DNA from: an uncultured Gammaproteobacteria bacterium
Lineage (GTDB): Bacteria > Patescibacteriota > Patescibacteriia > SG8-24
DNA: 64,000 bases
Assembly: GCA_964491475.1 (NCBI GenBank)
Contig: CAZBFO010000002.1
Location: 277,841 to 341,840 of the forward strand
Reading direction: 5' to 3'
Of this stretch, positions 18,843-42,900 are shown one piece after another; positions within the stretch are counted from its first letter, which is position 1, and the number at the start of each line of letters is the position of its first letter. A model generated the notes under the pieces. That model saw only the letters and a list, made by a program, of their open reading frames with translations. It searched no databases and was not told the origin of the DNA. Both the position numbers and the translations under genes were made by a program.

Positions 18843-21314
18843 ATGTCGTTCATCAGGCGTTTCGCGCAGAGGATGCTTGCCGTCGTCGGGGTCGCCGCGG
18901 CGGTGGCCGCGTCGGTTTTTGCGCTTTCCGGATCGGTCTCATTGGCGCAGACGGGTGCTGCCCCGAAGATACTGACCGGCCCCACGGTCAGCAGCATCAC
19001 CGAGGATTCGGCCATCATTCGGTGGACGACCGACGTAGAAAGCACCACCGTGGTCGATTTCGGCACCACCGACTCGCTCGGGCAGACCTATCGAAAGATC
19101 ATCCCGATCGAAGAGACCGAGGTGACGGAGATTTCGCACACGATGACGCTGTCTCCGTTGAAGGCGGGCACGCGCTACTTCTTCAAAGTGTCCTCCTCGA
19201 CTTCCGGCGGCACAGCGTCTTCGGCCATCGTCGACTTCACTTCTGCCAGCCCGGCTTGCGGTCCTGACGCCTGGACTTGCACCGACTGGAGCGCCTGTGA
19301 GAAGGGCACCGGCGGCAGCTACGGCCAGACTCGCTCCTGCAGCGTGTCGGCGGCCTGCGCCGACGCGGGAGTACCAAAGCCGCAGACGTCGCAATCCTGC
19401 ACGCCCGCCTGCACCGAGGACACCTGGACCTGCGGAAATTGGCAGGCATGCTCGGCCGGCGGCACCCAGACCCGCGCCTGCACCTTGACGACCGATTGCC
19501 CGACGGCAAGCACGCCCAAGCCAGCCACTTCGCAGAGCTGCAGGCGGCCTTGTACTGCGGACGATTGGAAGTGCGGCGAGTGGGGCGATTGCAGCAAGGA
19601 GACGCAGACGCGCTCTTGCGCCCTGCCGACCACCTGCTCGGGCACGCCAGCCAAACCGGCCGAGAGCCAAAAGTGCGTCATGCCGAAACCGGCGTGCACC
19701 GACAAGGATTGGATTTGCGGAGAATGGGGCGCTTGTTCGGCCGACGGGAAGGCGAAGCGCGACTGTTCCTTGCCTACGACCTGCCTGCCCGTAAAGCCTG
19801 ACGAAAAAACCCGCTCCGAAATCAAGGACTGCCCGCCAGCCGGTGCCGAAGGCGACAAAAAGCCCGAAGAGCCGGCGAGTCCGACCGGGCAAGACCTGAA
19901 CGAGCCGCTGCCGCCCGACGCGAACGTGCCCTTCTCTCCCTCCGAGCCTCCCGCACCTCCGGTCCCGCCGCTTTCGGCGAGCACCGTTCTGGGCGGCGGC
20001 GACGAAAGCGCGGCGCTGCTGAAGGAATGTGCCGACAACAACATCGGTCCCGACCGTTGCCCGGCTTGGCTCGATGCCAAATATGGCGACCGTTCTTGCG
20101 AGGAAAACGGTATCTTCTCGAAGGAAGCCTGCGTTGCGTTCCTGCGCAAGACGCATGGGGGAACGGTTCCGGGCTGCGAGGGTAAGACCGAGGCGGAATG
20201 CAGCGAGATTTTGGCCCGCATGATGGCCGGCTACATGCCGGGAGACATGCATGACGAGATCGACGCCATGATCGGTACGACGAAGGCCGGCGAGATGTTT
20301 GACGCGCTCGGCGATGCGGCCCCGTCTGTGCTTGCCGTTCGTGCCAGCCACAAGGACAAGGTGCGCTGGTGGCCGTCCAAGCGCTCCGGCGATCAGGAGA
20401 CTTCGCCGGGAATGTTCGTCATCGACACCGATAAGGACGGCCTGCCGGACGACGTCGAGAAGCGGCTGGGCACCGATCCGAACGTTCCCGATGCGGCCGT
20501 CGCTCGTGAGATACTGAAGAAGTTCTTCGAGGCCGGCGACAAGCCTGCGCCGGAGCAGTTGGCCGTCCGCGAAAGGCTGAAGTCGTTCTTCGAGACGGGC
20601 GATAAGCCGTCCCAGGACGACGCCCGCGCGGCGATGGCCGCCTTCTTCGGCCCCGGCACGCCGCCAGGCAGCGTCAACGCCATCGACGCGGCGTTCATCC
20701 TCGGCTTGGCCGTCGGCCAGCCGACGGGGTCGGGTACCACGGACGACAGTTTCACCGTCGACGCCACCAGTTCGCCTGACGCCGCCGACGGCGGAGGCAT
20801 CACGCTGCACGGCCATGCGGCACCGGGCGCCGTGATCTTCCTGTACGTCTACAGCTACGTGCCGATGGTGCTGACCACCACCGCCGATGACAGCGGCAAC
20901 TACCAGTACGACATTTCCGACAACGTCGTCGACGGTTCGCATACCGCCTACGTGGCCCTGGTCGACGGCGCCGGCGACGTCGCCGCGAAGAGCAGGCCGC
21001 AGTCGTTCTTCGTGAAGACCGCCTTGGCAGTCACCGAAAGCGATTTCCTTGCCACCGACGCCAAGTTGACGCCGACCACGCCCGCTTCGAAAGCTACCAG
21101 CGTCTACCTGTACGGGGTCGCCGCGCTGTTGCTGGTCGCGCTGATTGCCGTCGGGTTCGTAATGCGGGGGACGCGGAAGCGGAAGGGCGCGGCACCGTCG
21201 CCCACGGGTCCGACGCCTCCGAAACCTCCTGCTCCACCGCCCACCGCTCCGCCAGCGCCTCAAACGCCGCCGGCACCGCCTGCGGCATCACCGCCCGCAG
21301 CACCGCCACGATAG
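18843..21314 (+). CDS. Giant surface protein, paralog A. Domain order: signal peptide, FN3-like domain, four TSP1-like Cys/Trp repeats, a Cys-rich module, a TSP3-like Asp box, an Ig-like domain, a TM anchor and a Pro-rich tail.
   Basis: Signal peptide MSFIRRFAQRMLAVVGVAAAVAASVFA. FN3-like ILTGPTVSSITEDSAIIRWTT...TRYFFKV. Four repeats of C-x3-W-x-C-x2-W-x2-C...QTR-x-C. DTDKDGLPDDVEKRLGTDPNVPD. The Ig-like domain ITLHGHAAPGAVIFLYVYSYVPMVLTTTADDSGNYQYD is homologous to the C-terminus of the 38869..42900 protein. TM helix VYLYGVAALLLVALIAVGFV followed by a proline-rich tail. Confidence 0.75.
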   Translation: MSFIRRFAQRMLAVVGVAAAVAASVFALSGSVSLAQTGAAPKILTGPTVSSITEDSAIIRWTTDVESTTVVDFGTTDSLGQTYRKIIPIEETEVTEISHTMTLSPLKAGTRYFFKVSSSTSGGTASSAIVDFTSASPACGPDAWTCTDWSACEKGTGGSYGQTRSCSVSAACADAGVPKPQTSQSCTPACTEDTWTCGNWQACSAGGTQTRACTLTTDCPTASTPKPATSQSCRRPCTADDWKCGEWGDCSKETQTRSCALPTTCSGTPAKPAESQKCVMPKPACTDKDWICGEWGACSADGKAKRDCSLPTTCLPVKPDEKTRSEIKDCPPAGAEGDKKPEEPASPTGQDLNEPLPPDANVPFSPSEPPAPPVPPLSASTVLGGGDESAALLKECADNNIGPDRCPAWLDAKYGDRSCEENGIFSKEACVAFLRKTHGGTVPGCEGKTEAECSEILARMMAGYMPGDMHDEIDAMIGTTKAGEMFDALGDAAPSVLAVRASHKDKVRWWPSKRSGDQETSPGMFVIDTDKDGLPDDVEKRLGTDPNVPDAAVAREILKKFFEAGDKPAPEQLAVRERLKSFFETGDKPSQDDARAAMAAFFGPGTPPGSVNAIDAAFILGLAVGQPTGSGTTDDSFTVDATSSPDAADGGGITLHGHAAPGAVIFLYVYSYVPMVLTTTADDSGNYQYDISDNVVDGSHTAYVALVDGAGDVAAKSRPQSFFVKTALAVTESDFLATDAKLTPTTPASKATSVYLYGVAALLLVALIAVGFVMRGTRKRKGAAPSPTGPTPPKPPAPPPTAPPAPQTPPAPPAASPPAAPPR
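19255..19832 (+). repeat. Four tandem ~47-aa thrombospondin type-1-like repeats (protein level) within adhesin A
   Basis: CGPDAWTCTDWSACEKGTGGSYGQTRSC, CTEDTWTCGNWQACSAGGTQTRAC, CTADDWKCGEWGDCSKETQTRSC and CTDKDWICGEWGACSADGKAKRDC, each ending ...PKP..SQ.C. Confidence 0.55.
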
Positions 21315-21335
21315 CCGCGCAAAAAACCCGCGAAC

Positions 21336-21378: not shown

Positions 21379-21389
21379 TCAAGCAGATT

Positions 21390-22436
21390 ATGAGCTATAA
21401 GAAGTTCCAGACGTATTTCTTCATCGCTCTGCTGTCCGGCAGCCTTTTGCTGACATTGGCCGTTTTCCAGTCCTACCTGGTGCTGTTGGCTTTCGGCGGC
21501 GTTTTCGCCATCCTTGCCCGTCCGCTGTTCCTGCGTTTCGAGCGCTACCTCAAGTCCGAAACGGCCGCCGCATTCCTGACCATCACGGTCGTGGCCAGCC
21601 TGATCTTCGTGCCAACGGCACTGTTCGTGGCGCAGCTCACCGACGAATTGGGTCGGCTGTTCTCGAACATCAAGGGGTATCTGGACTACCAGGCGGTCAA
21701 CGCCCTGCTGGACAAGTACGTGCCCGCACAATTTCACGCCCAGGTTCCGGCGATGATGCAGGAGGGCGCCCGGCTGGTCAGCGCCCTGGCGCAGACGCTC
21801 TCAAGCAACCTGCTGGCGTTCTTCTCCAACCTGTTCGGCATGGTCTTCGGCCTGCTGGTGGTGGTCATTTCCGCTTACTACCTGCTGAAGGACGGCACCA
21901 AGATCAAGAAGGAGCTGCTGGTGCTTTCGCCTCTGGGCGACAACCATGACGAGCAGGTGTTTCGCCGCGTCGTCACGGCCGTCCGGGCGGTGTTCCTTGG
22001 GACACTCATCGTCGGTGCCGCCAAGGGCGTGCTTTCGGGAATCGCCTTCTGGCTGACGGGCCTTCCGGCACCGCTGTTTTGGGGAACCATGACCGGTTTG
22101 GCGTCGTTCGTCCCGATGGTCGGTTCGGCCATCGTGACGGTGCCCGCCGTGCTGTATCTCGTCGCCATCGGCAAGGTTAACGCCGCGATCGTCCTGTCGG
22201 TCGTGTCCATTGCGGTCATCGGCACCATCGACAACTTCATCCAGCCGAAGTTCGTGGAAAGCAAGACCAGCATCCATCCTTTGCTTGTGCTGCTGTCCAT
22301 TTTGGGGGGCATGCAGTTCTACGGGTTCGCCGGCTTCATCCTGGGTCCGCTGACCCTGGCCGTGTCGATGGCGCTGCTGGAAATCTACAAGAAGGAGTTC
22401 CGGCGCGGGCTCGACGGGGACGAAAAAGCGGAATGA
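21390..22436 (+). CDS. AI-2E family transporter (PerM/YhhT, UPF0118)
   Basis: Eight-TM topology and the conserved C-terminal core GLPAPLFWGTMTGLASFVPMVGSAIV...IDNFIQPKF. Confidence 0.85.
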   Translation: MSYKKFQTYFFIALLSGSLLLTLAVFQSYLVLLAFGGVFAILARPLFLRFERYLKSETAAAFLTITVVASLIFVPTALFVAQLTDELGRLFSNIKGYLDYQAVNALLDKYVPAQFHAQVPAMMQEGARLVSALAQTLSSNLLAFFSNLFGMVFGLLVVVISAYYLLKDGTKIKKELLVLSPLGDNHDEQVFRRVVTAVRAVFLGTLIVGAAKGVLSGIAFWLTGLPAPLFWGTMTGLASFVPMVGSAIVTVPAVLYLVAIGKVNAAIVLSVVSIAVIGTIDNFIQPKFVESKTSIHPLLVLLSILGGMQFYGFAGFILGPLTLAVSMALLEIYKKEFRRGLDGDEKAE

Positions 22437-22437
22437 A

Positions 22438-22470
22438 AAAACGGCCGCCGAGACGGGCCGTTTTTCGTTC
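22438..22470. terminator. Bidirectional terminator between convergent genes
   Basis: An A-run, the AACGGCC...GGCCGTT hairpin, then a T-run. Confidence 0.55.
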
Positions 22471-22990
22471 AGCGGGACGCCTTCCTGCTCGGCGCCTTTT
22501 TTTTCGGCTCAAGGTGCTTTTTGACGGTCGCGTAGGTCTTGCCGGCCAAACTGGAATTCGAAGACCAGGCTTCTTGGGAAACGTCGCGCCCGAACCATCG
22601 CGGGGGGACGAAGGCGGATCGGGCCGCCTCGTCTTTGAACTCCACCTCGACCATCGCCAGCCCTTCGAGCGGACCGTGGAAAACGTCCAGCTCGGCGGTC
22701 AGGTTATCGTCGAGACGGAGGTAGTGGCGGGTCTTGGTGAGGCCGCGTTTGGCCAGCGGCAGCAGCAGGTAATACTCCTCGCGGTCGAGAGGAACGGTGA
22801 TTTCCTCACGGCGCGAAAGGTCGTCACCGGCGACATTGAGCTTCTTCGTCAGTTCGTAGGTTCCTCCGGATCGGCGGATGCGCAGGGGTTCTTCGCCCTC
22901 GGACAGGTAGTGCTGCTCGATGTCTTTGCCAGGGATGCCGGCCAGGTCCGGCATGCGCTTCACCAAGTAAGACAGTTCATTTTCGATCAT
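22469..22990 (-). CDS. CYTH-domain protein (triphosphate tunnel metalloenzyme, inorganic triphosphatase/CyaB-like)
   Basis: N-terminal IENELSYLV (EIExKF-like) and C-terminal LAMVEVEFKDEAARSAFVPPRWFGRDVSQE, a typical CYTH ending. Confidence 0.65.
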   Translation of the reverse strand: MIENELSYLVKRMPDLAGIPGKDIEQHYLSEGEEPLRIRRSGGTYELTKKLNVAGDDLSRREEITVPLDREEYYLLLPLAKRGLTKTRHYLRLDDNLTAELDVFHGPLEGLAMVEVEFKDEAARSAFVPPRWFGRDVSQEAWSSNSSLAGKTYATVKKHLEPKKKAPSRKASR

Positions 22991-22996
22991 AGCGGA

Positions 22997-23404
22997 TCAG
23001 GGTGCCGTTGATGAGGCGTTGACGTTCGCCGCCGCGTTGACATTGGCGGTGACGGGCGCGGTTACCGAGTGCCAGGCCGTGACGAACAGGCCGAAGAATC
23101 CCGAGACCATGGACTTGAGGAACGGCCAGACGGCCTCCCAGGCCGTGGCCCACACGGAGGTGACCGCCTTCTGCATCTCGGGGGATTTTGCAGTTTCCGC
23201 CGCCGCTGCGGCCGCTTGGCCGGCCGGACCGTTCACGGACAGGTTGACGTTCGCTGCGTCATTGAGGAGCTGCTTGGCGCTGGCCGAAACGCCGGCCGAA
23301 GCGTTGACGTTGGTCGTCGCGGCCGCTGCGGATGAGGCGCAAAGCAGCGAAATGCCGAATGCGACCACCAAATGTTTTGCGGATTTGCGCGTGAGCATGG
23401 GCAT
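22997..23404 (-). CDS. Small secreted hypothetical protein with NVNA repeats
   Basis: Signal peptide MPMLTRKSAKHLVVAFGISLLCASSAAA. ANVN repeats at both ends. Lies in an operon between the 23464..25128 and CYTH genes. Confidence 0.45.
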   Translation of the reverse strand: MPMLTRKSAKHLVVAFGISLLCASSAAAATTNVNASAGVSASAKQLLNDAANVNLSVNGPAGQAAAAAAETAKSPEMQKAVTSVWATAWEAVWPFLKSMVSGFFGLFVTAWHSVTAPVTANVNAAANVNASSTAP

Positions 23405-23463
23405 GGCGTTAACTCGTATCTGTCGATGGGACTGTACCACGGGCGCGGTGCAGCGCACAGTCG

Positions 23464-25128
23464 TCACCGTTTGGCGCGGAAGGTCTGCATGTTGGCGTCG
23501 AACTGCGCCTTTTGCTCGGCCGTCAACATTCCCGGACCCTTGGGATTGTAACCGCCTTCCACCTCCCGGCCGTCTCCGAAGCCGTCACCGTCGGTGTCGG
23601 CCTTGAGAGGGTCGGTGCCGTAGACGTAGATTTCTTCTCCATCGGAAAGGCCGTCGAGGTCGGTGTCGGCGACGTTGGGGTTGGTGTTATAGACCATGGT
23701 CTCCTGCTCGTCGGACACGCCGTCGCCGTCGGTGTCGGCAGAAGGAGCGGCATCCGTTTGCGGGGCTTCGGCAGGAAGGGGATTCGACGGCGACGGCTGT
23801 TGTTCGGGGACGTTCGTCGCCGATGGCGGGGCGGGCACTGTCGTGGTGACGGTCTTTTCGTCCGGCGGTACCGTCGTCGGCTGCGGAGCCACGTCGAAGC
23901 CGTTGAGGCTAAGCGTATGGGGTCCTTTTGCGAAAGCCAGTACGCCCTGCTCCAGGGTGAAGCTGATGACGAAGGTCAGGTCCCGTTTCTGGTAACCGTA
24001 CCCAGGACCGTCGGGGTCCTTCGGTACCGTCTTCAGGTACCTTGGCGAAAGCTGGTCGAGCGAATCCGGATACGCCTTGTTGTCGCTGAACCAGCTGCCT
24101 AGCGCCAGCTTGATCATGTTCACGTCACCGTAACGCTGCAAGTCGCGTTCTTCGGGGGTGCTGGCGTACTTGGGAGGGGCGGTGACGGGCGCCGCCGAAG
24201 GTTCCCTGGCCTGCCGCTCGCCGAACGGGGCGTTGACGCTGATCTTGGTGAGGTCCGCAAGGTTGAACTTGGCGCGAGTCAGGAAGAAAACCGGCAGGGC
24301 TATGATGCCGACGAGACAAAACGCGCCGAGCGCCGCCAGGATGCGGTAGAAAAGCTTGCGCGAGGGCTTGACCGTCCATTCTTTTCCCACGACGGCCACG
24401 CAGTCCTCGTAGAACGTCTGCAGGTAGATGAGGTAGAAGGGGGAGAACAGCGCCGCGAACAGCCAACTTGCGGCCGAGGCCGCCGGCGAGACGAGTGCGG
24501 GCTTCGTGACCCAAGCTGCCGCCGCAGCGATGCCGCTGAACGCCAGGCCGATGATGCCGCCCATGACGGCAAGTCCCAACTGGTCGAAGAGCAGCGTAGT
24601 CGTGCGGCCGTATATCAGGTCGCGGCTTCGGGCCAGTGCCTCGACGCCCTTGCGGCGTTCATTGATGACGACGTAAACGGTTAACGTGAACCGGACGGCC
24701 ATTATCACCGCCGGGACGATCAGAAGGGAGGGCAGGAAGATGACCAATGAAAAAACAAACGTCGTGAAGATACCGGGAAGCAAGGAACCCAGACCTCGGC
24801 TGAAAGCCCTGCCGAATCGGAGTTCTCCGGCGGCGACCGCCACCAGCACGTAGGGTGCCAGCAAAGACGCCACAAAGCCGACGATGCCCAGGCCTGCAGC
24901 GGGGGCGGCCGGCAGATGGCCGCGCATCGCGGCCAATATGATGGAGGGCAGGCCGGTGACGCCGCTGATGAGCACGAACATGCCTAGCGAGGCCCGATAC
25001 CGTATGAAGGTCCTGTGCAGCCTGTCCTTCATCGGCGGAAAGATCACGGGCTTCACGAAGCCAACCGACGGCGCGGCTGGCACCGGCTGTGCGGGTTGTG
25101 CCGGAGTCACGATGGGTTCGGCTGGCAT
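23464..25128 (-). CDS. Chimeric membrane protein, paralog B: a polytopic N-terminal TM domain, a type IV pilin-like globular domain and three C-terminal TSP3-like Asp-rich calcium-binding repeats
   Basis: Six to eight TM helices in the first ~300 aa. Pilin-like motif ERDLQRYGDVNMIKLALGSWFSDNKAYPDSL...YLKTVPKDPDGPGYGY. C-terminal DTDGDGVSDEQE...DTDLDGLSDGEE...DTDGDGFGDGRE. Confidence 0.65.
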   Translation of the reverse strand: MPAEPIVTPAQPAQPVPAAPSVGFVKPVIFPPMKDRLHRTFIRYRASLGMFVLISGVTGLPSIILAAMRGHLPAAPAAGLGIVGFVASLLAPYVLVAVAAGELRFGRAFSRGLGSLLPGIFTTFVFSLVIFLPSLLIVPAVIMAVRFTLTVYVVINERRKGVEALARSRDLIYGRTTTLLFDQLGLAVMGGIIGLAFSGIAAAAAWVTKPALVSPAASAASWLFAALFSPFYLIYLQTFYEDCVAVVGKEWTVKPSRKLFYRILAALGAFCLVGIIALPVFFLTRAKFNLADLTKISVNAPFGERQAREPSAAPVTAPPKYASTPEERDLQRYGDVNMIKLALGSWFSDNKAYPDSLDQLSPRYLKTVPKDPDGPGYGYQKRDLTFVISFTLEQGVLAFAKGPHTLSLNGFDVAPQPTTVPPDEKTVTTTVPAPPSATNVPEQQPSPSNPLPAEAPQTDAAPSADTDGDGVSDEQETMVYNTNPNVADTDLDGLSDGEEIYVYGTDPLKADTDGDGFGDGREVEGGYNPKGPGMLTAEQKAQFDANMQTFRAKR

Positions 25129-25206
25129 AACGTTTTGCCCGACGGTCAGGCGGGCTATTCGTCGTCAGTATAGCACGGGCGGGCGCTGCCGAAGAACGCC
25201 CGCGCG

Positions 25207-25244
25207 ACAAAAAGAAAGCCCCGGACGCGAAGTGCGTCCGGGGC
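25207..25244 (-). terminator. Rho-independent terminator downstream of the 25256..25933 gene on the - strand
   Basis: GCCCCGGACGC-GAAGT-GCGTCCGGGGC, a perfect 11-bp stem. The + strand AAAAAGAAA gives a U-run on the - transcript. Confidence 0.7.
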
Positions 25245-25255
25245 AAAGTGCCCGT

Positions 25256-25933
25256 TCAGAACTGTTCGGCCGCGAATTCGGCCATCATGTTGTCCGTGCG
25301 CACGCCGGTGTCGATGCCCAACTGCGACAAAGTGTCATCGTCGATGGGGACTTCGACCCGCGGAACCCAGTCGTAACTGATGCGGACAGACATGGAGTCC
25401 ATGTCCCATTCGGCGGAGATCACGTGATCGTCGCCGTAGTTGAGGTGACCGAGCCGAATCGGTCCGGCCAAGGAAACGTAGCCGCGGTCGGCGCATTCGG
25501 CGCTGGTGCTCTGGCCGGGGTTCAGCTTGGTCGAGACGTACAACGCGCTCATGCCGTCCGGTTCGCGCCGGACCATCGCGTACAGCAGGTTGCAAGGGTC
25601 CTTGGCCATGAACTTCATGCCGATCTGGTGCCGCACCTCGCCGTTGCCGAGGTGCGATACTCCCCCGGTTTCGCCGAGGAAGATGAACTGCAGATCGGCA
25701 CCGAACGTCAGCCTGCGGCTGCGGGGGAAGAGGAAGATGCCGCGCATTTCCGGACTTTCGGTCCGGAAAGGCAGGACGTCTCCGGTGCCGACGTGGCCGT
25801 CGGTCACCAGGATGCGCGTGGTCTTGTCGTCCTCGGGGCCGATGTCCGCCATGCGGACGTTGCAGCCGAGGCCGAAACAGGCAATCGCGGTGAGCGTAAG
25901 CGCGTACGCGAAACTGTCGAAATGCTTGTGCAT
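25256..25933 (-). CDS. Hypothetical lipoprotein
   Basis: Signal peptide with a lipobox-like LTAIACFGLGC. A terminator hairpin lies immediately downstream on the - strand. Confidence 0.5.
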   Translation of the reverse strand: MHKHFDSFAYALTLTAIACFGLGCNVRMADIGPEDDKTTRILVTDGHVGTGDVLPFRTESPEMRGIFLFPRSRRLTFGADLQFIFLGETGGVSHLGNGEVRHQIGMKFMAKDPCNLLYAMVRREPDGMSALYVSTKLNPGQSTSAECADRGYVSLAGPIRLGHLNYGDDHVISAEWDMDSMSVRISYDWVPRVEVPIDDDTLSQLGIDTGVRTDNMMAEFAAEQF

Positions 25934-26014
25934 TGCACACCTCTATTCGTTGGAATGGGGACGGTTTTTGACGAGTGACATGATAATGGGCAACTGCTAA
26001 AAATAGCACAAAAA

Positions 26015-26027
26015 TGACATTTTGTCA
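26015..26027. promoter_or_regulatory. Palindromic operator-like site TGACA-TTT-TGTCA in a divergent intergenic region
   Basis: A perfect 5-3-5 inverted repeat with further TGACA/TGTCA half-sites within about 90 nt (GTGACATG, CGTGTCAG, CTTGACAA), between divergent lipoprotein genes. Confidence 0.35.
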
Positions 26028-26150
26028 ATCGTGTCAGAAGGATCTGAACTATCATTTTTTGGCTTTGTTGAGCCCTTGACAAACTCCTTATTTTATCGCA
26101 TGCTGGCCGGTCGCATTCATGCGGCAACAAGAAAAAGGGGAGTCCCGTCC

Positions 26151-26774
26151 ATGAAGAAAAAACTGCTCGTTTCCTTCGCCGTGATCGGCGCCCTCGCCGG
26201 TTGCAACATGCCCTTCGACACCTCGCCCAACACGCCGTCATCCAAGAAGAAGACGGTCGTTCCGACCGACGTCGTGGCCGACCGGCCGGCGCCGTCCTCG
26301 CCGTTCATGGGCCATCGGTTCTTCTTCGACGGCGCGTTGCCGGAAGGCTGGTACGTGTCCGCACGCGGCGACGATCAGCCGCTGGCGCCGGGATACGCCG
26401 CGCTGTGCGTGCTGTCCCGCGCCAAGAGCAGGGACAAGGTCCTGATCCTGCTGGCGTCATCGGTCGATGCGGCCGCGCGCGCCGAGGTGACGGCGCGCAT
26501 GCGCGATGCCGAATGGTGGCAACCGCGCATTCCGCTGTCCTTCTTCGACGCCGACCGCGTCGGTGCCGACGTCGGCCTGCACGTCACCAAAGGCCAGTTC
26601 GCCGACATCGACTCGCTGCTGCTCTTCGCGGTCCTCCGCTGTCAGAGGGAGAGCTGCGAGGCCTCGCTGGAACAGACACGCGAAATCGCCAACCGTCTGC
26701 AGTTGCGCCCCGCACGCGCGGACGACGAGCACGTCGTCAGCCCCTCGGGCGGCGATTGCGGTTCGCGTTTCTGA
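26151..26774 (+). CDS. Hypothetical lipoprotein
   Basis: MKKKLLVSFAVIGALAGC lipobox. An AAAAAGGGGA RBS precedes the ATG and a terminator follows at 26786-26814. Confidence 0.55.
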   Translation: MKKKLLVSFAVIGALAGCNMPFDTSPNTPSSKKKTVVPTDVVADRPAPSSPFMGHRFFFDGALPEGWYVSARGDDQPLAPGYAALCVLSRAKSRDKVLILLASSVDAAARAEVTARMRDAEWWQPRIPLSFFDADRVGADVGLHVTKGQFADIDSLLLFAVLRCQRESCEASLEQTREIANRLQLRPARADDEHVVSPSGGDCGSRF

Positions 26775-26785
26775 CGTTTCGTCGC

Positions 26786-26814
26786 GACCTCCGGTTTGCT
26801 CGGAGGTTTTTTGT
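26786..26814 (+). terminator. Rho-independent terminator
   Basis: GACCTCCG-GTTTGCT-CGGAGGT followed by TTTTTTG. Confidence 0.55.
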
Positions 26815-26895
26815 CGGGAAATCTTGACAAACCGGCCGATTCGGGACAGAGTAGCGCATCCGGAATGAGCCGGATCATCATGAAAGGAGCCGCAG

Positions 26896-27501
26896 ATGAG
26901 AACAGGTCCATTGGTGGCATTCACGGCAGCGCTGGCGGTCGGCTGCGTTGCGTCACGGCCGCCGCAGACGGCGAAAAAGCCGGCACCGTCAGTGCCCGTT
27001 CTGGCAGCGACTGCGCCGGAGGCACGACCGGACGCGGTGCCGCAGGCGGCGGCGGTGGCCAGTGAGGCGTTGGAGATGTCGTACTCGCTTCCCGACGCGG
27101 AAGACTGGACGGAGGGCGACCGCCGCGCGGTCGGCTTCGACGGCTGGACGCCGGATGCGGTCATCCGCAACGAGAAGCTGGGCGCGACCATCGTCTTTGC
27201 CGGCTATCCGCGGAACCTCGGTTCGACGCTCGACGTCGCCGACTCGCTGCGCGCCAAGTTCGCGGCTTCCTCGGCCGTGATGGCCGAGGCGACCGGCCGT
27301 TTCGCTTTCTTCGCCTTCTGCAAGAAGCGCACCAAGGGCGAATCCGAAAGGACCTGCGGCAAGGTCTACGTGGTGCGGCCCGGCGGGGATGGCGGCCAGT
27401 ACGTGCTCATCGTAGGCATCTGGCCGGAATCGTCCGGCGCGGATGCCGCCAGGGACGTCGATGCGGTCGCGCGAAGCTTTTCCGCGACCCACGCGCAGTA
27501 G
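26896..27501 (+). CDS. Hypothetical lipoprotein
   Basis: MRTGPLVAFTAALAVGC lipobox. An AAAGGAG RBS precedes the ATG and a bidirectional terminator follows. Confidence 0.55.
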   Translation: MRTGPLVAFTAALAVGCVASRPPQTAKKPAPSVPVLAATAPEARPDAVPQAAAVASEALEMSYSLPDAEDWTEGDRRAVGFDGWTPDAVIRNEKLGATIVFAGYPRNLGSTLDVADSLRAKFAASSAVMAEATGRFAFFAFCKKRTKGESERTCGKVYVVRPGGDGGQYVLIVGIWPESSGADAARDVDAVARSFSATHAQ

Positions 27502-27512
27502 CGCGGACAGTC

Positions 27513-27546
27513 AAAAAACCTCCGACGATGTCGGAGGTTCTTTATT
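27513..27546. terminator. Bidirectional terminator between the lipoprotein and dus genes
   Basis: AAAAAA, CCTCCGAC-GAT-GTCGGAGG, then TTCTTTATT. Confidence 0.6.
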
Positions 27547-28561
27547 ATGTCGCGCAGCTGGCTTCGAGCGCGGGTTCGCGGACGGCAGTCGCGGACCCGT
27601 ATCCGGCCAAGTACTCGTCCATTACGGCATGCAGTTCGGGCAGCGTGGAAATTTTCATCATCTTGTCGCGGAGCGCCTTGGCGCCGGGCTGGCCCTTGAA
27701 GTACCAGGTGAGGTGCTTGCGGAAGCTGACCAGCTGGCCGCCGTACAGCTCGGCGTGCAAGATGCCGTGGTCGCGGACCGTGGCGATGCGCTCGGTCATG
27801 GTCGGCGCGACGATCGGTTTGCCGGCCAGCGCGGCTTCGATCTGCGGGAAGATCCAGGGGTTGCCCAGCGCGCCGCGGGCGATGAGCAGGCCGTCGCAGC
27901 CGGACTCGGCCAGCGCCTTGGGCGCCAGGTCGGCGGTATGCACGTCGCCATTGCACAGCACCGGAACGGACACGTTGGCGGCGGCGCGTCCGACCATCTT
28001 CCAGTCGGCGACGCCGGAGTAGCCTTGCGCCTTGGTGCGGCCGTGGATGGTGACCAGCGCTGCGCCGGCGTCCTCGATGACCTTGATGAACTCCAGGCAT
28101 TCCGTCGGATCGGACCAGCCGAGGCGGATCTTCACGGACACCGGCTTGTCGGTGGCGGCCTTCATCGCCTTGATGATGGCCGTGGCCAGCACGGGGTCTT
28201 TCATCAGCGCGGCGCCGTTGAAGTTGGAGACGATCTTGTAGACGGGGCAGCCCATGTTGATGTCGAAGCCGTCGGGGGAGTAGGCCTCGTCGATCATGCG
28301 GGTGGCTTCGGCCATCGAGGCGGGATCGGCGCCGAACAGCTGCTGCACGATCGGCCGCTCTTCCTCGACGAACCGGCCCATTTCCATCGACTTCTGGCTG
28401 CCGTGCACAAGCCCTTCGGCGGAGATCATCTCGCGGAAAACGATCGGCGCGGCGTAGCGCTTGGCGATGCGGCAAAAAGCCGAGTCGGTCATGTCGGCCA
28501 TGGGGGAGAGCGCGATGATCGGTTTTCGCATTTGAGACCAGTCAAACATAGCTCGCAGCAT
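27545..28561 (-). CDS. dus: tRNA-dihydrouridine synthase (Dus family, FMN TIM barrel)
   Basis: IIALSPMADMTDSAFCRIAKRY...DINMGCPVYKIV...VKIRLGW matches Dus. Start chosen at MLRAMFDW; an ATG 30 nt further downstream is equally possible. The ORF extends back to 28660. Confidence 0.8.
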   Translation of the reverse strand: MLRAMFDWSQMRKPIIALSPMADMTDSAFCRIAKRYAAPIVFREMISAEGLVHGSQKSMEMGRFVEEERPIVQQLFGADPASMAEATRMIDEAYSPDGFDINMGCPVYKIVSNFNGAALMKDPVLATAIIKAMKAATDKPVSVKIRLGWSDPTECLEFIKVIEDAGAALVTIHGRTKAQGYSGVADWKMVGRAAANVSVPVLCNGDVHTADLAPKALAESGCDGLLIARGALGNPWIFPQIEAALAGKPIVAPTMTERIATVRDHGILHAELYGGQLVSFRKHLTWYFKGQPGAKALRDKMMKISTLPELHAVMDEYLAGYGSATAVREPALEASCAT

Positions 28562-28665
28562 AGCGGAAAAACGGCTCCATGGCAAGAGGGGAGCGTGTCG
28601 GTTGTTTCGCCTTCCTAAATAAACTGAAGTCTGATAGGATAGCCCTGTTCTCCCTCGCAATCATT

Positions 28666-30348: not shown

Positions 30349-30358
30349 CGTCACCGCC

Positions 30359-31033
<675 letters not shown>

Positions 31034-31035
31034 CC

Positions 31036-32283: not shown

Positions 32284-32286
32284 CCT

Positions 32287-33540: not shown

Positions 33541-33589
33541 CGGACATGCTACACTGCGTCAGTCAGAAACATTCCTTGCGCCTATTTCC

Positions 33590-34057: not shown

Positions 34058-34144
34058 GCGCGGGCCGGACCCTTCCCAAAAGCCGAAAATCTGCTAGGGT
34101 GCATCCGTTAGGAGCCGCATTAGCGGCGGAGGTGGCTTAGCCAT

Positions 34145-35617
34145 ATGTTTTTCAAGAAGCCGACCGTGACGCGCTTAGCGCAAGACCGGATCAGCGCCAG
34201 CATGTTCTACAAGTACGACGCCTGTCCGCATTGGCTGTATTTTGACGCCTACGGCGATCCGTCCAAGAAGGCGTCGGTGACGCAGTTCACGGAGATGCTG
34301 CTCAAGGGCGGCGTGCTGCACGAGCAGGAGGTCATCAAGGACATGCAGTGCGTGCAGCCCAAGGGCGACACGCAGGAAGAGCGGTTCTCGGCCACGCTGC
34401 AGCTCATGCGCGACGGCGCGGCCTGCATCTACCACGGCGTGCTGATGGACGACGAGTTCGTGGGCGAGCCGGACCTGCTGGAGCGACGCGACGGCTCGGC
34501 CGGTTCGACCTTCGGCAGCTACCATTACGTGCCCGTGGAGATCAAGAGCGCCGAACGCGTTTCCGACGCGCACAAGTACCAGTTGTACTGTTATGGCGAA
34601 CTGCTGGAACGGCTGCAGGGCACGCGGCCCGAGGAAGCCTACGTGCTGAACGGCTCGGGCCTGCGCATCGGTTTCATGCTGCGCGAGTTCCGCGAGCAGT
34701 TCGCCGCCGCCGTCGAGGACATCCGCAAGACTTTGGCCGGCGATCCTCCGCCGCCGCACGTGGCCTCGAGCTGCAAGCAGTCGCCATGGTTCAAGGAGTG
34801 CCTGGCCTTCGCCGAGAAGCAGGACGACATCGCCCTGCTGTACAACGTGAAGAAGAAGGTGGTGGCGGCGCTGCGCGAACACGGCGTCAGGACCGTCCAG
34901 GACGCCGCCAAGATCGAGCCGAACCGGCTCGCCAAGGAAGACAAGCTGTTCAAGCCGGCGCTGCTGGAGCGCATCGTGCTGCAGGCCCGGGCGCTGATCG
35001 AAAAGCGCCACTTCGTCCGCAAGCCGCTCGACATTCCCGAAGCGCCCCTGGAAATCTTCTTCGACATCGAAGGCGATCCGCTGCGGCAGGTGGAATACCT
35101 GTTCGGCTTCCTGGTGCGCCGCCAAGGACAGGAGGAAAAGTACGAGTACCAGATTGCCGAACGCGCCGAGGACGAAGCCAAGATGTGGAACGAGTTCCTG
35201 ACGTGGGTGAGCGCGCTCGAAGGGGATTACGTGGTGTACCACTACGGCACCTATGAGCTGACGAGGCTCATCCAGCTGGAGGCGCGTCACGGTTGCCCGG
35301 CAGGGCAGGCCGCGGCGCTCAATCTGTTCCGCGACCGGTTGGTGGACCTGAACGAGCTGGTGAAGGACGCGGTGGTGTTTCCGCTGTACTTCTACAGCAT
35401 CAAGGACATCGGCAAGTACATCGGCTTCACCCGAGAGGGCGCCATCGTCGGGGGCGGGGAGTCGGTGGCGGTCTACGAGGACTGGCTGGCCAACGGCGAC
35501 CGCAAAAAGCTCGACGACATCATCCTCTACAACAAGGAGGACGTGATCGCCACGCGCTACCTCAAGGACTGGCTGGTACTGGAACGCGACCGCGAAAAGG
35601 CCGATCGGGCCCTGTAA
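34145..35617 (+). CDS. TM0106-family putative nuclease (RecB/Cas4-like PD-(D/E)xK domain plus a C-terminal RNase H-like domain)
   Basis: N-terminal YKYDACPHWLYFD...EPDLLERRDG...YVPVEIKS (PD-(D/E)xK) and C-terminal FFDIEGDP...YHYGTYE (RNase H-like exonuclease). Confidence 0.75.
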   Translation: MFFKKPTVTRLAQDRISASMFYKYDACPHWLYFDAYGDPSKKASVTQFTEMLLKGGVLHEQEVIKDMQCVQPKGDTQEERFSATLQLMRDGAACIYHGVLMDDEFVGEPDLLERRDGSAGSTFGSYHYVPVEIKSAERVSDAHKYQLYCYGELLERLQGTRPEEAYVLNGSGLRIGFMLREFREQFAAAVEDIRKTLAGDPPPPHVASSCKQSPWFKECLAFAEKQDDIALLYNVKKKVVAALREHGVRTVQDAAKIEPNRLAKEDKLFKPALLERIVLQARALIEKRHFVRKPLDIPEAPLEIFFDIEGDPLRQVEYLFGFLVRRQGQEEKYEYQIAERAEDEAKMWNEFLTWVSALEGDYVVYHYGTYELTRLIQLEARHGCPAGQAAALNLFRDRLVDLNELVKDAVVFPLYFYSIKDIGKYIGFTREGAIVGGGESVAVYEDWLANGDRKKLDDIILYNKEDVIATRYLKDWLVLERDREKADRAL

Positions 35618-38829: not shown

Positions 38830-38850
38830 CGCCCGTGCTTGGACGGGAAG

Positions 38851-38859: not shown

Positions 38860-38868
38860 TTTCGCGGT

Positions 38869-41800
38869 ATGCCAGCCAAAAAGACCCGGTCGCGAAAATC
38901 GTCCAAACCGTCGGCGGAGCACGGCGACTCCGTCCTGTTGCGATTGGCCGTCGGGGCGGTCCTGCTGGGCATGGTCTGGGCCGCAGTTCCGCTGGCGAAA
39001 GCGCTGACCACCACCATCACTTCCGTCGTCGATCAGGCGTTTTCGGCGGCGGTGACCGCGCCGTCGTCAGGCTCGACCATCAGCGGAACGGTGCCGTTGG
39101 AGGCGCGGGTCGCGGCTGCGGCGAGTTCGGGGATATTCACGCTTTCCGGCGGTCCGAACGGTTTGCAACAGCCCATACAGGGCACGCAAGACGCTTCGGA
39201 CGCGCTGAAGTGGACGGCCAAGCTTGATGCTTCCGTGCTTGTTGCCGGCACCTATGCCCTGGGATTTTCCGCCGTGCGCGCCGTCGACGGGCTGACAGCC
39301 AGTTCGCCGCAGATTTCCCTGATCGTCGCCGATCAGGCGCCGGCCAAGTACGTCATCACCTTCGTGTCGCCCAGATCGGGCTCAACGGTATCCGGCACTG
39401 TCGCGCTCACGGCCGGCGTGAACCTGGCAGCTGACTCGCTGACCTACGTCGTCACGCCCGTAGCCGGCGGGGGATTGGTAGAGTTGAAGTCGTCTTTTGA
39501 CGGCACGAACGGCACTTGGGTCGGCAGCTGGAATACCGCCGAATTTCCGAATGGCACCTATACCGTGGTGCCCCACGCCTTTCACGCCGCCGTGATGGAA
39601 GTGGGCGACCCCGTTACCTTGACCGTCAGCAATGCCGCTCCGCCTCCGACCTTCACCGCGACCGTGCGGACGCCCGCCTCGGGCAGCGCGCTGAAGGGCA
39701 TCGTGACGTTCAGCTCCGTCACCAACCTGGCCGCCACCGGCCTTGCCTATGTCGTGACCGATGCCGGCGGCGCGCCTGTCGCTTCGCTGAACGCCGCTCC
39801 TTCTAACGGCAGCCTGCAATGGGACGCGACTTGGGACACGACGGCAGTATCCAACGGCACCTATTCGCTCAAGGCCACCTCGATCCGTACGGGCGCGCAG
39901 GCGGAGGCCGGCCCGGTTTCCTTCACGATCGCCAACCAGGCCGCGTCGACGTTATTGACCGTCCTGATGGCCGCGCCGGCCAAGGGCGCGGTGGTCTCTG
40001 GCAGCGTGCAGGTGTACGCGCAGACTTCCCTGGCGGCAGACAGCCTTTCCTTCACCATCACCCAGACTTTCGGCAGCAAGCACGTCACGCAGCTTGCGGC
40101 GGCAGGAGGTCCGACCTCCTGGTATGCCGCCTGGGATTCTTCGGCATTGGAGCCGGGGGCCTACCTCATTCACGCCACGGCCCTGAAGGGCACGGGAACG
40201 AACGTGAGCGACGACGTCGCTTTCAGCGTCACGGCGCCGTCCGCCGGATCGCCGACGCCGGTCTCCGCTGCCGTCAACGTCACGGTGCCGGTTTCGGGCG
40301 CGACGGTCGCCGGTCAGATGAGCCTGGCTGCGCGCACGGACTCCGCCGTGGACCTCGCCGGGTTTGAGTTGCGCAACGCCGTCGCGCCGGACGCGGCGCC
40401 TGTCGCCACGGTGGCTGCCAGCGGAGCCGACGGCGGTACCTCGTGGACGGCGACGATGAACACTACCGCCATTCCCGACGGCGAATACGTGGTGGTGGCC
40501 GTCGTGACCCGCAACGGCGTGAAAGCCTCCAGCGCGGCCGTTCCCGTGCATTTGAAGAATCTCACCAGCGGCCAGGCGGCCGTGCCCTCTTTTGAAATCC
40601 GATCGCCCGCGCCCGGCGCCTCGGTCTCCGGCATCGTGCCTTTCTACGCCTCATCCTCGGCCGCCATCGACGGGCTGGCCTTCATTCTTCAGGGGCCGAC
40701 AGTACCCGGCAGCAGGATGGCGTTGCCGGCTACCGGCAACGCCGAAAAGACCGCATGGACGGTCAATTGGAATTCCGGAACGGTGCCCGACGGCAGCGTC
40801 TCCCTGTCGGCCGTGGCTTCGAAATCGGGACATGAGTCCGAGGGGGCGCCGCGCGCGTTCACGGTCGCCAACGGCGCTTCGGCCCCGGTGCAGCCTCCTC
40901 CGACCGCCACCGCGCCTCCGGCAGCGGCCACGACCTTCAAGGTGACCGTGGTCAATCCGGTGACCGGACAGATTTACGCCGGACAAGTGCCATTGGCCGC
41001 CGCCGTCGACGGCGGCACCGCGCTGAACGTGCGGTTCACCGTCGGTGCCGCGAGCGGCGGTGCCGTGGCGGACATCGACGCGCATTTCGATTCGAAGACC
41101 AAGCGCTGGGTGGCGCTCTGGAAGCCAGACGCCGCCGCAACCGGCACTTACGTCGTGACGGCGACGGCCCAAAATACCAGAGGCCAGACGGCGCAAAGCG
41201 AAAGGGTCAAAGTGCTTTTCGGCGCTTCTAGGCCGGGGGAGCCAGCCGCGCCCGGATCGCCGCCGTCGCCGCCGGAGGTGCCGAAGCCCGTCGTTTCGGG
41301 AGAAAAAGCGGCGCTCATCGTGAAAATCTCCTCGCCTGTCGCTTCGTCGGTATTGCGCGGACCGGCGGTACTTGCCGCAGACGCAGAGGGCGCGGCTGAA
41401 GTCGGTTTCGCCATCCGCCCGATCAAAGAAGGGGAGGCGACGACTCGACGCGCGGCCAGCGACGGAACGCGCTGGGTCGCTTATCTCGACACCACGGCAA
41501 TTCCTGACGGCGATTACGAAATCGAAGCTTCGGCCGTCGACGCCGCCGGCAATCGCGCGGTCTCGCAGCGTCTGCCTTTCGGCGTGCGCAACGCGGGCGG
41601 CGGGGCGCCCGTGAGCAGGGTGGACGTCGTGCCTCCCGCGGCAGTAGTCGCTTCGGTGCTCGAACGGCCGCAAGGATCCGTCTCGCTTTCCGCCGATCCG
41701 CTGCCGCAGTCCGTTTCGGACGCGACCGACCAGCTCAATGCCGACTGCATCGCCAGGAAAGTTCCCGCCGAGAGGTGTTCCGAATGGTTGGCTCGGCAGT

Positions 41801-42900
41801 CGGAGCGGCAGGAATGCGCGGCCGCCGGCATCGTCACCAAGGAAGAGTGCCTTGCCTATCTGAAATCCAAGCGCGGCGGACAGGTGGCAGCCTGCGAAGG
41901 CCGCACCGACGAAGACTGCGCCAAAGTCGTGGCCATCGCCACCGCCGACCTGATCTTTGACGCCGACCTGCGCGCTTTGCGCGACGCTGCCTTGCAGAAC
42001 GTGGGACGGGTGCTGCAAATGCCCCCGCGCGGCAAGCAGGCAGCAGGCGGCGGGGACATTCCTCCGGCGCCGCCCGGATTGGCAGACCTTTCGCCTTTCG
42101 CGGGAGAAGCGCCGGTGAACGTCGGCTTGCACGCCTCGCCCGGTTTCGGCACGACCGACGGCAACGTCGCCCATCAGAACCTGCCGGCCTTCGTAATGGT
42201 CGACACCGACGGTGACAACTTGCCGGACGACATCGAGCTCCGCCTGGGAACCGATCCGCGCAATCCCGATTCCGACGGCGACGGCTACAACGACGGCTTG
42301 GAAGTCGAACGCGGCTACAATCCGCTCGGTCCGGGGGCGCTTCTTGGGAACGTGACCTTGGCGCCGGTCGATCAGGCGGTCATCTCCGGCATTGCCATCG
42401 AGCAACCGACTGACGCGGGAACGGTCGCGCCTGACCTGAAGGTGGAGACGGCAGTCGCCCAAAAGGAAAAGGAAGGCACCTTCACCATCGGGGGCCGCGC
42501 CAAGCCGCACGACGTCGTGACGGTGTTCGTCTACAGCTACCTGCCGGTCGTGTTCACTACCGCCGCCAAGGACGACGGCACCTGGACCTACGATCTCGGA
42601 ACGGGCCTGGCCGACGGGCAGCACGAGGCCTACGCGACCGTGACCGACGACACGGGAAAGATTTCCGCCAAGAGCGAACCGCTGTCGTTCTTCGTCTCCG
42701 GCGCGAAGGCCGTGACGCAGGATGAATTCTTCAATCCCTCCTCGTCGCCGCTTTCCGCCGCGGCGGTGGCGGCACCCAGCCAGGCGCTGCTCGGCTGGTA
42801 CATCGGCGCAGTGGCGATGCTGATGGGCATCGCGCTGGTCGTCTCGTTCCTGCTGTTCATGCGGCCAAAAAAGAATCAGCCGCCTCCTCCGTCGCAATAG
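38869..42900 (+). CDS. Giant surface protein, paralog C (1343 aa). Domain order: signal/TM, about 9-10 tandem Ig-like domains, a Cys-rich module, TSP3-like Asp boxes, an Ig-like domain, a TM anchor and a Pro-rich tail.
   Basis: A repeated ~100-aa unit (P.SGS.VSGTV.L.A...L.YVVT...W....W.T....NGTY). The Cys module DCIARKVPAERCSEWL...ECAAAGIVTKEECLAYLKSKRGGQVAACEGRTDEDC is homologous to paralog A. DTDGDNLPDDIELRLGTDPRNPDSDGDGYNDG. TM helix WYIGAVAMLMGIALVVSFLLF followed by KKNQPPPPSQ. Confidence 0.8.
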   Translation: MPAKKTRSRKSSKPSAEHGDSVLLRLAVGAVLLGMVWAAVPLAKALTTTITSVVDQAFSAAVTAPSSGSTISGTVPLEARVAAAASSGIFTLSGGPNGLQQPIQGTQDASDALKWTAKLDASVLVAGTYALGFSAVRAVDGLTASSPQISLIVADQAPAKYVITFVSPRSGSTVSGTVALTAGVNLAADSLTYVVTPVAGGGLVELKSSFDGTNGTWVGSWNTAEFPNGTYTVVPHAFHAAVMEVGDPVTLTVSNAAPPPTFTATVRTPASGSALKGIVTFSSVTNLAATGLAYVVTDAGGAPVASLNAAPSNGSLQWDATWDTTAVSNGTYSLKATSIRTGAQAEAGPVSFTIANQAASTLLTVLMAAPAKGAVVSGSVQVYAQTSLAADSLSFTITQTFGSKHVTQLAAAGGPTSWYAAWDSSALEPGAYLIHATALKGTGTNVSDDVAFSVTAPSAGSPTPVSAAVNVTVPVSGATVAGQMSLAARTDSAVDLAGFELRNAVAPDAAPVATVAASGADGGTSWTATMNTTAIPDGEYVVVAVVTRNGVKASSAAVPVHLKNLTSGQAAVPSFEIRSPAPGASVSGIVPFYASSSAAIDGLAFILQGPTVPGSRMALPATGNAEKTAWTVNWNSGTVPDGSVSLSAVASKSGHESEGAPRAFTVANGASAPVQPPPTATAPPAAATTFKVTVVNPVTGQIYAGQVPLAAAVDGGTALNVRFTVGAASGGAVADIDAHFDSKTKRWVALWKPDAAATGTYVVTATAQNTRGQTAQSERVKVLFGASRPGEPAAPGSPPSPPEVPKPVVSGEKAALIVKISSPVASSVLRGPAVLAADAEGAAEVGFAIRPIKEGEATTRRAASDGTRWVAYLDTTAIPDGDYEIEASAVDAAGNRAVSQRLPFGVRNAGGGAPVSRVDVVPPAAVVASVLERPQGSVSLSADPLPQSVSDATDQLNADCIARKVPAERCSEWLARQSERQECAAAGIVTKEECLAYLKSKRGGQVAACEGRTDEDCAKVVAIATADLIFDADLRALRDAALQNVGRVLQMPPRGKQAAGGGDIPPAPPGLADLSPFAGEAPVNVGLHASPGFGTTDGNVAHQNLPAFVMVDTDGDNLPDDIELRLGTDPRNPDSDGDGYNDGLEVERGYNPLGPGALLGNVTLAPVDQAVISGIAIEQPTDAGTVAPDLKVETAVAQKEKEGTFTIGGRAKPHDVVTVFVYSYLPVVFTTAAKDDGTWTYDLGTGLADGQHEAYATVTDDTGKISAKSEPLSFFVSGAKAVTQDEFFNPSSSPLSAAAVAAPSQALLGWYIGAVAMLMGIALVVSFLLFMRPKKNQPPPPSQ
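39050..41270 (+). repeat. About 9-10 tandem ~100-aa Ig-like (Big-like) domain repeats (protein level) in surface protein C
   Basis: Recurrent SGSTVSGTV.L.A....AADSLTYVVT...W.A.WDT.A.PNGTY... units. The nucleotide sequences have diverged. Confidence 0.55.

Follow-up and report, generated by a model that had tools for sequence, protein, structure and literature searches.

Thrombospondin type-1 repeats (TSRs) are regarded as a hallmark of the eukaryotic extracellular matrix, complement and parasite adhesins, and examples such as TSR2–3 of thrombospondin-1 (TSP-1; 1LSL), Toxoplasma MIC2 TSR6 (8J64_B) and TSR3–4 of semaphorin-5A are tandem extracellular modules of about 48 amino acids (aa) with six cysteines. 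In the eukaryotic thrombospondins TSP-1 and TSP-2, the repeats precede Asp-rich type-3 Ca2+ boxes in one secreted polypeptide that also has an N-terminal oligomerisation domain, EGF repeats and a lectin-like TSP_C domain, while the apicomplexan TRAP/MIC2 proteins are type-I membrane proteins with a vWA/I-domain, outer TSR-type repeats, one transmembrane (TM) helix and a short acidic cytoplasmic tail with a terminal Trp. Bacterial surface proteins with type-3 boxes (TSP3; PF18884) include Myxococcus CglD and MtsC/MtsD and the OmpA-TSP3 proteins, and tandem Big domains are found in adhesins held by LPXTG, autotransporter or T1SS/RTX systems. Here we describe three genes in a 64,000-nucleotide stretch of DNA from an uncultured bacterium (GCA_964491475.1, contig CAZBFO010000002.1, positions 277,841–341,840; referred to below as the window), which we call A (18843–21314, forward strand), B (23464–25128, reverse strand) and C (38869–42900, forward strand). 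A and C are paralogs which share a C-terminal membrane-anchored cassette beneath different heads, B is a separate polytopic membrane protein, and the head of A contains four Trp- and Cys-rich (W/C) repeats with a predicted TSR-like fold.

The translated products of A, B and C are 823, 554 and 1343 aa long, and identical products have been called in public assemblies, one a 385,998-bp NCBI contig (the exact A and C products are both called in Logan SRR12313479, and A also on the NCBI contig), confirming the coordinates given in a preliminary description of this DNA. The G+C content of the window is about 63% and its real frames have high GC3, with the A, B and C open reading frames (ORFs) the best-supported frames. 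A regular-expression search of all six frames of the window found DxDxDGxxDxxE boxes in each of the three genes, as had been described, and nowhere else (one in A, three in B and two in C), and the W.C..W..C motif four times, exclusively in A. In pairwise comparison, residues 387–788 of A align by BLASTP without interruption to 951–1342 of C (E = 3e-44, 30% identity, 432 columns), over a stretch spanning a Cys-rich module, the TSP3 boxes, an Ig-like domain, a TM helix and the tail. Judged from the sequences, this similarity is far past chance and has no low-complexity basis, and A and C are modular paralogs sharing a 430-aa C-terminal cassette; the Cys-rich module, and likewise the Ig-like domain, TM helix and tail, that were earlier described as common to two of the proteins all lie within the aligned region. 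In contrast, B matches A only over one 24-aa TSP3 box (E = 0.018), and its match to C is limited to a TSP3 pair of 48 aa (60% identity, E = 1e-12). The proposal of three paralogs which align outside of low-complexity regions therefore holds for A and C, and B is rejected as a third: with matches limited to TSP3 boxes, five predicted TM helices and orthologues of its own, the set is better seen as two paralogs plus one unrelated protein with a mobile repeat.

Protein A consists of a predicted signal peptide, an FN3 domain, four TSR-like repeats, a Pro-rich linker and a Cys-rich helical module, followed by the remainder of the cassette (one TSP3 box, an FFExGDKP insert, Big_13, a TM helix and a Pro-rich basic tail), all on the forward strand. 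The N-terminal hydrophobic segment (18873–18929, aa 11–29, from a hydropathy scan) is a predicted Sec signal peptide, which is probably cleaved, and is directly followed by an 'AQT' motif common to relatives in the family alignment. The FN3-type domain (18987–19241, aa 49–133) matches Pur_ac_phosph_N (Pfam PF16656, 31.7 bits, cut-off 30) and fn3 (23.2 bits) and is conserved in the relatives P0005–P0007. The four tandem repeats (19251–19835) occupy aa 137–188, 188–234, 236–279 and 283–331, and the six-Cys helical module in common with C lies at 20010–20252 (aa ~390–470). The single bacterial TSP3 calcium-binding box, DTDKDGLPDDVEKRLGTDPNVPD (20424–20492, aa 528–550), has a Pfam TSP3_bac score of 24.5 bits, just below the cut-off of 25, and its residues D528, D530, D532, D536, E539 and D550 are invariant among seven aligned family members. 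It is followed by an insert of three '..FFExGDKP/..FFGPG' units (20493–20657, family alignment columns 701–780) which sits where relatives carry a second TSP3 box. We note that the three tandem units are each of about 17 aa, ending in FFEAGDKP, FFETGDKP and FFGPG, and that the close relative P0030 shows the beginning of this insert too. The Big_13-type Ig-like domain (20784–21017, aa ~648–725, family motif YVYSYVPMV) scores 23.3 bits, under the cut-off of 27, and aligns with the Big_13 of C across YVYSY.P.V...DG.H. The C-terminus (21102–21314) comprises a TM helix (aa 754–774, hydropathy score 2.64), RGTRKRKG and a 45-aa Pro-rich tail, with comparable tails in P0023, P0028, P0030 and P0038.

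Protein C begins with a signal-anchor and eight Ig-like modules before the Cys-rich helical module and the cassette remainder, here composed of two TSP3 boxes, Big_13, a TM helix and a short basic Pro-rich tail (this order is drawn from Pfam, alignment and self-profile searches, and again all features are on the forward strand). The eight tandem modules of about 100 aa are of the Big_7 type (39037–41613, aa 57–915); Pfam Big_7 scores 62.9 bits, and a self-profile search found all eight units with E-values of 4e-22 to 6e-48. The six-Cys helical module, homologous to that of A by alignment, is at 41743–41940 (aa 959–1024), the two TSP3 boxes, ending GYNPLGPG, at 42202–42336 (aa 1112–1156; TSP3_bac 25.9 bits, and also found by regular expression), and the Big_13 domain at 42475–42693 (aa 1203–1275; 52.1 bits, cut-off 27). 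The C-terminal TM helix (hydropathy 2.63) and tail, RPKKNQPPPPSQ, are encoded by 42787–42900.

Searches with the C-terminal block of A, followed by local profile searches, identified about 20 relatives carrying the cassette of six-Cys helical module, one or two TSP3 boxes, a 'QP' linker, Big_13 (YVYSY.P.V…DG.H), TM helix and basic tail, the last being often Pro-rich. The head of these proteins is FN3 alone in P0005 and FN3 plus one to four W/C repeats in P0006, P0023, P0028, P0030, P0038, P0047, P0078 and others (P0030, of 821 aa, mirrors A in having four W/C repeats above the same cassette), and W/C repeats are missing from the heads of C, with its eight Ig modules, and of the long ORFs of contigs L001 and L005. 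As the same cassette is found beneath different heads in these relatives, the reshuffling of modules suggested in the preliminary description is supported. One ORF from a Parcubacteria metagenome-assembled genome (MAG; L004) has five tandem copies of the four-Cys start of the helical module, of about 48 aa each, at aa 486–775, and the Cys-rich module therefore consists of smaller helical disulfide units.

The consensus of the W/C repeats in A is C-x4-W-x-C-x2-W-x2-C-S-x2-G-x-Q-T-R-x-C-x5-C-x7-P-x5-C, and that of the wider family is PxC-T-x-D-x-W-x-C-G-x-W-x-x-C-S-x-x-G-x-Q-T-R-x-C-x-x-x-x-D-C-P…P-x-x-x-Q-x-C. An exhaustive hmmsearch with a 13-unit profile against 1.84 billion cluster representatives from metagenomes found 1069 repeat-bearing representatives at E≤1e-3, 356 at E≤1e-10 and 80 at E≤1e-30; in the 150 best, a single protein had as many as 15 matched stretches. 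At least 15 of these 150 also have TSP3 boxes, so the pairing of TSR-like and TSP3 modules, earlier thought to be unusual in bacteria, is not rare in this lineage. In a scan of 83 repeat-bearing proteins, Pfam never covered the W/C repeat itself, and the partners were Trypsin_2 (31 of 83), Laminin_G_3 (7 of 83) and, in a few proteins, CARDB, TIG, PG_binding_1 and S-layer domains; NCBIfam HtrA/DegP models matched 32 of the 83, and no NCBIfam model matched the repeat. The W/C repeat belongs to a large prokaryotic family absent from Pfam and NCBIfam, which also adorns secreted HtrA-like proteases and lectin-type domains, and is a general extracellular module which extends beyond A-type proteins. 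Nothing relevant was found in literature searches on TSP3_bac, or on thrombospondin together with CPR, Patescibacteria, Parcubacteria or metagenomes.

An AlphaFold2 model of the second repeat of A, built from an alignment of 150 diverse units, has a pLDDT of 95.5 and strands at residues 7–10, 21–23, 26–30 and 43–45, and the predicted fold is elongated and three-stranded, with strand A set against a B–C hairpin. This fold is seen in the prediction only and its comparison scores are weak: Foldseek returned nothing significant from the PDB, and the eight matches at E≤10 were all TSR proteins (TMq ≤0.62), including Unc5A, MIC2 TSR6, pleiotrophin, proMIC2, properdin and semaphorin-5A. A second structure comparison against the PDB returned complement C8 beta, C6, C7 and C9, pleiotrophin, midkine, TSP-1 (three entries), semaphorin-5A and THSD7A. 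It should be noted that the matches to complement chains are ambiguous, as LDLa modules occur in these chains as well; this does not apply to the single-domain TSR chains. The repeat profile was also compared by hhalign with a TSR alignment compiled by hand, giving a probability of 63.5% and pairing W-x-x-C-S…G-x-Q-T-R-x-C with W-S-x-C-S-V-T-C-G-x-G-x-x-x-R-x-R-x-C; the score of 23.0 was higher than those of all 200 column shuffles (mean 9.9, maximum 19.6) and higher than that of the reversed control.

The cysteine framework was examined by covariation and residue statistics over 481 repeat units. Covariation favours pairing of strands B and C (21/43, 22/44 and 23/43) and a C10–C26 link, and six cysteines are present in 453 of the 481 units at positions unlike those of the canonical TSR, for which the framework is C1–C5, C2–C6 and C3–C4 or the group-2 variant. 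The second and fourth cysteines (C2 and C4) are jointly absent in 23 of the 24 units lacking either one and also covary, and a C2–C4 disulfide is probable on these grounds. Units of the four-Cys variant, C..W.YS.WS.C…QTR.V….P..C.GG.P…Q.C, have neither C2 nor C4, and both variants can share one protein, as in P0008 (aa ~75–150). Conserved ladder residues are W8 (92% of units), W13 (96%) and R24 (98%), and these form a reduced ladder which does not amount to WxxWxxW/RxRxR. On modelling and motif evidence, the repeat is TSR-like in its predicted fold and core motif and falls outside Pfam TSP_1 as this is defined. The four TSP1-like repeats of the preliminary description are thus present (aa 137–331), with a modelled fold whose Foldseek matches are all TSR proteins and a weak profile match, and it is a match to Pfam TSP_1 which was not found.

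When A and C are set beside the described systems, the likenesses are confined to modules. The repeat of A resembles TSRs in its length, six cysteines, extracellular tandem arrangement and predicted elongated three-stranded fold, and its core W..C-S..G.Q.R.C aligns with WS.CS.TCG.G.Q.R.R.C. Unlike a TSR, which has three Trp and three Arg, it has only two and one respectively, has an additional Cys between the Trp residues which is probably paired with the Cys after the Arg, lacks the 'TC' Cys of CSxTCG, and is prokaryotic, unmatched by Pfam TSP_1 and fused to HtrA-like proteases, FN3 and TSP3_bac. A is like TSP-1/2 in having TSR-like repeats followed by type-3 boxes, but it lacks the oligomerisation domain, EGF repeats and TSP_C, the boxes number only one or two in A and C, and it has a membrane anchor in place of secretion. 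Similarly, A has the type-I layout of TRAP/MIC2, and MIC2 TSR6 was among the top structural matches of its repeat, but A has no vWA/I-domain and shows no homology beyond the repeat, and the tail is basic and Pro-rich. The boxes are of the same DxDxDGxxDxxE type as those of CglD, MtsC/MtsD and OmpA-TSP3 proteins, but our proteins are without OmpA, vWA or MYXO-CTERM and the anchor is a C-terminal TM helix; the NCBIfam CglD, MtsC and MtsD models score only 33, 17 and 28 bits (cut-offs 400, 350 and 800), restricted to TSP3 boxes (the CglD and MtsD models touch this part of B and C). None of A, B and C has OmpA (PF00691), which occurs solely among the remoter of the many TSP3 matches of B. C resembles the tandem Big adhesins in having a cell-anchored array of eight Big_7-type modules and a Big_13, but its anchor is a TM helix with the Cys-helical/TSP3 cassette, and not LPXTG, an autotransporter or T1SS/RTX. 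Pfam found no EGF, TSP_C, OmpA, vWA, LPXTG or wall-binding domains in the proteins, and because these are missing they are neither thrombospondins nor OmpA-TSP3 proteins. Of the kinds of family named in the preliminary description, type-3 repeats (as TSP3_bac), Ig-like domains (as Big_13 and Big_7) and FN3 were found and TSP_1 was not, and calling the proteins thrombospondin-like as a whole is contradicted by the absence of EGF, TSP_C and an oligomerisation domain.

Considering the domain content, homology and family distribution together with the predicted fold of the repeat, we propose that A and C are type-I membrane-anchored surface proteins with a Ca2+-stiffened stalk and a variable head that function in adhesion, that the W/C repeat has a TSR-like fold, and that B is separate (we put the probability of this reading at about 0.6). 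The domain architecture is firm. The type-I single-pass topology is the standard expectation from hydropathy and charge and agrees with the anchor-plus-tail arrangement described earlier, as the hydropathy scan places a C-terminal TM helix ahead of basic residues. Binding of Ca2+ by the TSP3 boxes is suggested by the conserved Asp/Glu ligands, and adhesion or attachment to a host by analogy with known families (TSP3, and the Ig, FN3 and TSR modules of adhesins). Both proteins would be exported by Sec through the N-terminal signal sequence or signal-anchor, and the 24 repeat cysteines and six module cysteines would be folded oxidatively. The C-terminal helix would then stop transfer, leaving the positive residues and Pro-rich tail in the cytoplasm, and the TSP3 boxes would load Ca2+ and make the stalk rigid, keeping the head away from the membrane. 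This would expose the heads (FN3, four TSR-like repeats and a Pro-rich spacer in A; eight Ig modules in C) for binding, most likely to ligands on other cells or surfaces. A number of points weigh against this proposal. No TSP_1-type Pfam match was found for the whole of A at E≤0.1 or for 13 single repeats, which matched no Pfam model whatever at E≤10, and two repeat profiles did not recover TSRs from PDB sequences, giving chance-level matches only (antibody CH1 and LDLa, the best being LDLa modules at E ~0.5). AlphaFold may be biased towards a TSR for a repeat rich in W, C and R, the TSR target used with hhalign was a hand-compiled alignment, and the neighbours of all three genes are housekeeping genes which offer no functional hint.

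Other roles can be considered for A and C, and of these the most serious, although unlikely, is that they are structural spacers or struts which tie or organise the membrane with the wall or S-layer and are not adhesins. The varied heads over a conserved membrane-proximal cassette and the long Pro-rich and Ig spacers would suit such a strut, and a few repeat proteins also have PG_binding_1 and S-layer domains; however, SLH, LysM, PG_binding and OmpA are all unmatched by Pfam in A and C themselves, and the variability of the heads and presence or absence between relatives (A is missing next to the AI-2E gene in L023, the closest syntenic relative found) fit an accessory, ligand-facing role better. 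It is improbable that they are transmembrane receptors relaying ligand binding through the Pro-rich tail: a basic PxxP-rich tail does recur in high-GC relatives (P0009, P0023, P0028, P0030 and P0038), but the short, low-complexity tails (12 aa in C) show no sequence conservation, and there is neither a cytoplasmic domain nor neighbouring signalling genes. The order of TSR-like repeats before TSP3 boxes, as in thrombospondins, might also be taken to mean that both modules were recently gained from a eukaryote and that these are true thrombospondin relatives. We consider this very improbable, as eukaryotic TSRs have no significant sequence similarity to the repeats, the repeats form a large and varied family in prokaryotic metagenomes, with fusions to bacterial-type domains, Pfam finds no EGF or TSP_C, and the composition of the genes is that of the remaining window; recent horizontal transfer is effectively refuted by this diversity, the missing domains and the matching composition.

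For the W/C repeat itself two readings compete. It is possible, at rather less than even odds, that the TSR superfamily has a large prokaryotic branch, so far uncatalogued, which is defined by this repeat, has its own Cys framework and supplies HtrA-type proteases and adhesin-like proteins with a general extracellular module, largely in Patescibacteria-type organisms. A contender which we also hold short of evens is that the repeat is an independent bacterial disulfide-rich mini-domain, with the TSR likeness due to convergence or predictor bias. This would explain why HMMER gives neither a Pfam TSP_1 nor a PDB TSR match and only marginal LDLa-like ones, why two Trp and one conserved Arg stand in place of the WxxWxxW and RxRxR ladders, why the Cys framework differs with a C2–C4 pair joining strands A and B, and why the fold scores are weak; it is harder to reconcile with two structure-comparison methods recovering almost exclusively TSR proteins from the whole PDB, with the alignment of an equivalent core motif at a score above 200/200 shuffles, and with the agreement between modelled strand pairing and covariation.

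Protein B is a separate polytopic membrane protein bearing TSP3 boxes, for which full-length orthologues are available (P0161–P0165, 34–53% identity), including a syntenic one in L023. Its N-terminal region has five predicted TM helices (24274–24996, reverse strand as for all B features, aa ~45–285, from the hydropathy scan) and a weak match to GPDPase_memb (E = 0.014). The middle region (23899–24144, aa 329–410) is possibly a globular domain like that of the type II secretion pseudopilin G: a PDB sequence search gave GspG/EpsG as all three top matches, none of which are significant (E = 0.2–0.4), and the Pfam scan of this domain was without a match. With its motif Y(L/I)K..PKDP.G..Y.Y, this presumably extracellular domain resembles the GspG/EpsG globular domain, and it is joined here to the five-TM domain and not to a pilin helix. 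Three TSP3 boxes ending GYNPKGPG follow (23530–23736, aa 465–533; TSP3_bac 53.9 bits in three stretches), and neither an Ig domain nor a C-terminal anchor was found in B by Pfam or the hydropathy scan.

The genes are surrounded by an ABC transporter, AI-2E permease, CYTH, Dus, an MFP-ABC-MacB-MacB operon, RNase_H_2, PGI, cyclophilin, an HhH-GPD glycosylase, MetK, UvrD and an ECF sigma factor, with no island marks around A, B or C and no tRNAs in the window. L023 (DATJGO010000105.1 of GCA_035494885.1, 65.5% G+C) shares 54–78% aa identity with window positions 21390–35617 for AI-2E, CYTH, Dus, MFP, ABC and MacB, and has kept the gene order AI-2E, CYTH, a 156-aa ORF, B, …, Dus, MFP, ABC, MacB, MacB and RNase_H_2. 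A is absent beside AI-2E in this contig, which is consistent with it being accessory. Among GTDB species genomes, six of the ten cassette matches listed (full-length, with L006 partial) are in MAGs labelled Patescibacteria, Parcubacteria, Uhrbacteria or Minisyncoccales, and the other four carry doubtful 'Gammaproteobacteria' or 'Acutalibacteraceae' labels. The B orthologue of L023 (P0163) is labelled 'Candidatus Eisenbacteria bacterium', in conflict with the Patescibacteria labels of the cassette relatives, and the L023 contig might be mis-binned. The labels of the relatives point two ways on the phylum of our bacterium, and the monoderm envelope suggested in the preliminary description would follow from a Patescibacteria assignment, a diderm one from Eisenbacteria.

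The MFP-ABC-MacB-MacB export operon lies about 0.6–5.5 kb from a cassette-family gene in the window (28579–33540), in the JGI contig L020 (17364–21857) and in L007 (217–2924), a Minisyncoccales MAG in which it is immediately upstream of this gene, and the proximity may reflect conserved core synteny or a functional link. Within the operon, a 597-aa ORF (30490–32283, forward strand) overlaps an ABC-ATPase-like ORF (30284–31033); as MacB_PCD begins at residue 204 of the former, the first MacB permease probably starts near 31026. Two genes past C lies one (43863–44750, forward strand) whose product combines a Gmad2 domain (Ig-like, spore germination) with Germane/GerMN, and just downstream of the region is a gene for a Kelch-repeat beta-propeller protein (45222–46403, forward strand; Kelch_1, 181.9 bits). 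The segment 8855–10182 (forward strand) encodes an ECF-type sigma factor and then, in an overlapping ORF of 255 aa without a Pfam match, possibly an anti-sigma factor, and a comparable sigma factor and ORF pair is found in L020, 3–4 kb upstream of P0008.

A conserved cassette under interchangeable heads provides an easily recognised surface-display scaffold, and proteins with this cassette are candidates for partner attachment by small, uncultivated and possibly episymbiotic bacteria. More than 1000 bacterial clusters with a TSR-like fold would give the domain databases a new family and a candidate prokaryotic relative of the TSR. If the W/C repeat does prove to be a branch of the TSR superfamily, then TSRs would not have arisen first in eukaryotes, and it would become possible to test where they came from and what they bound ancestrally, cell-wall or surface glycans being one possibility.

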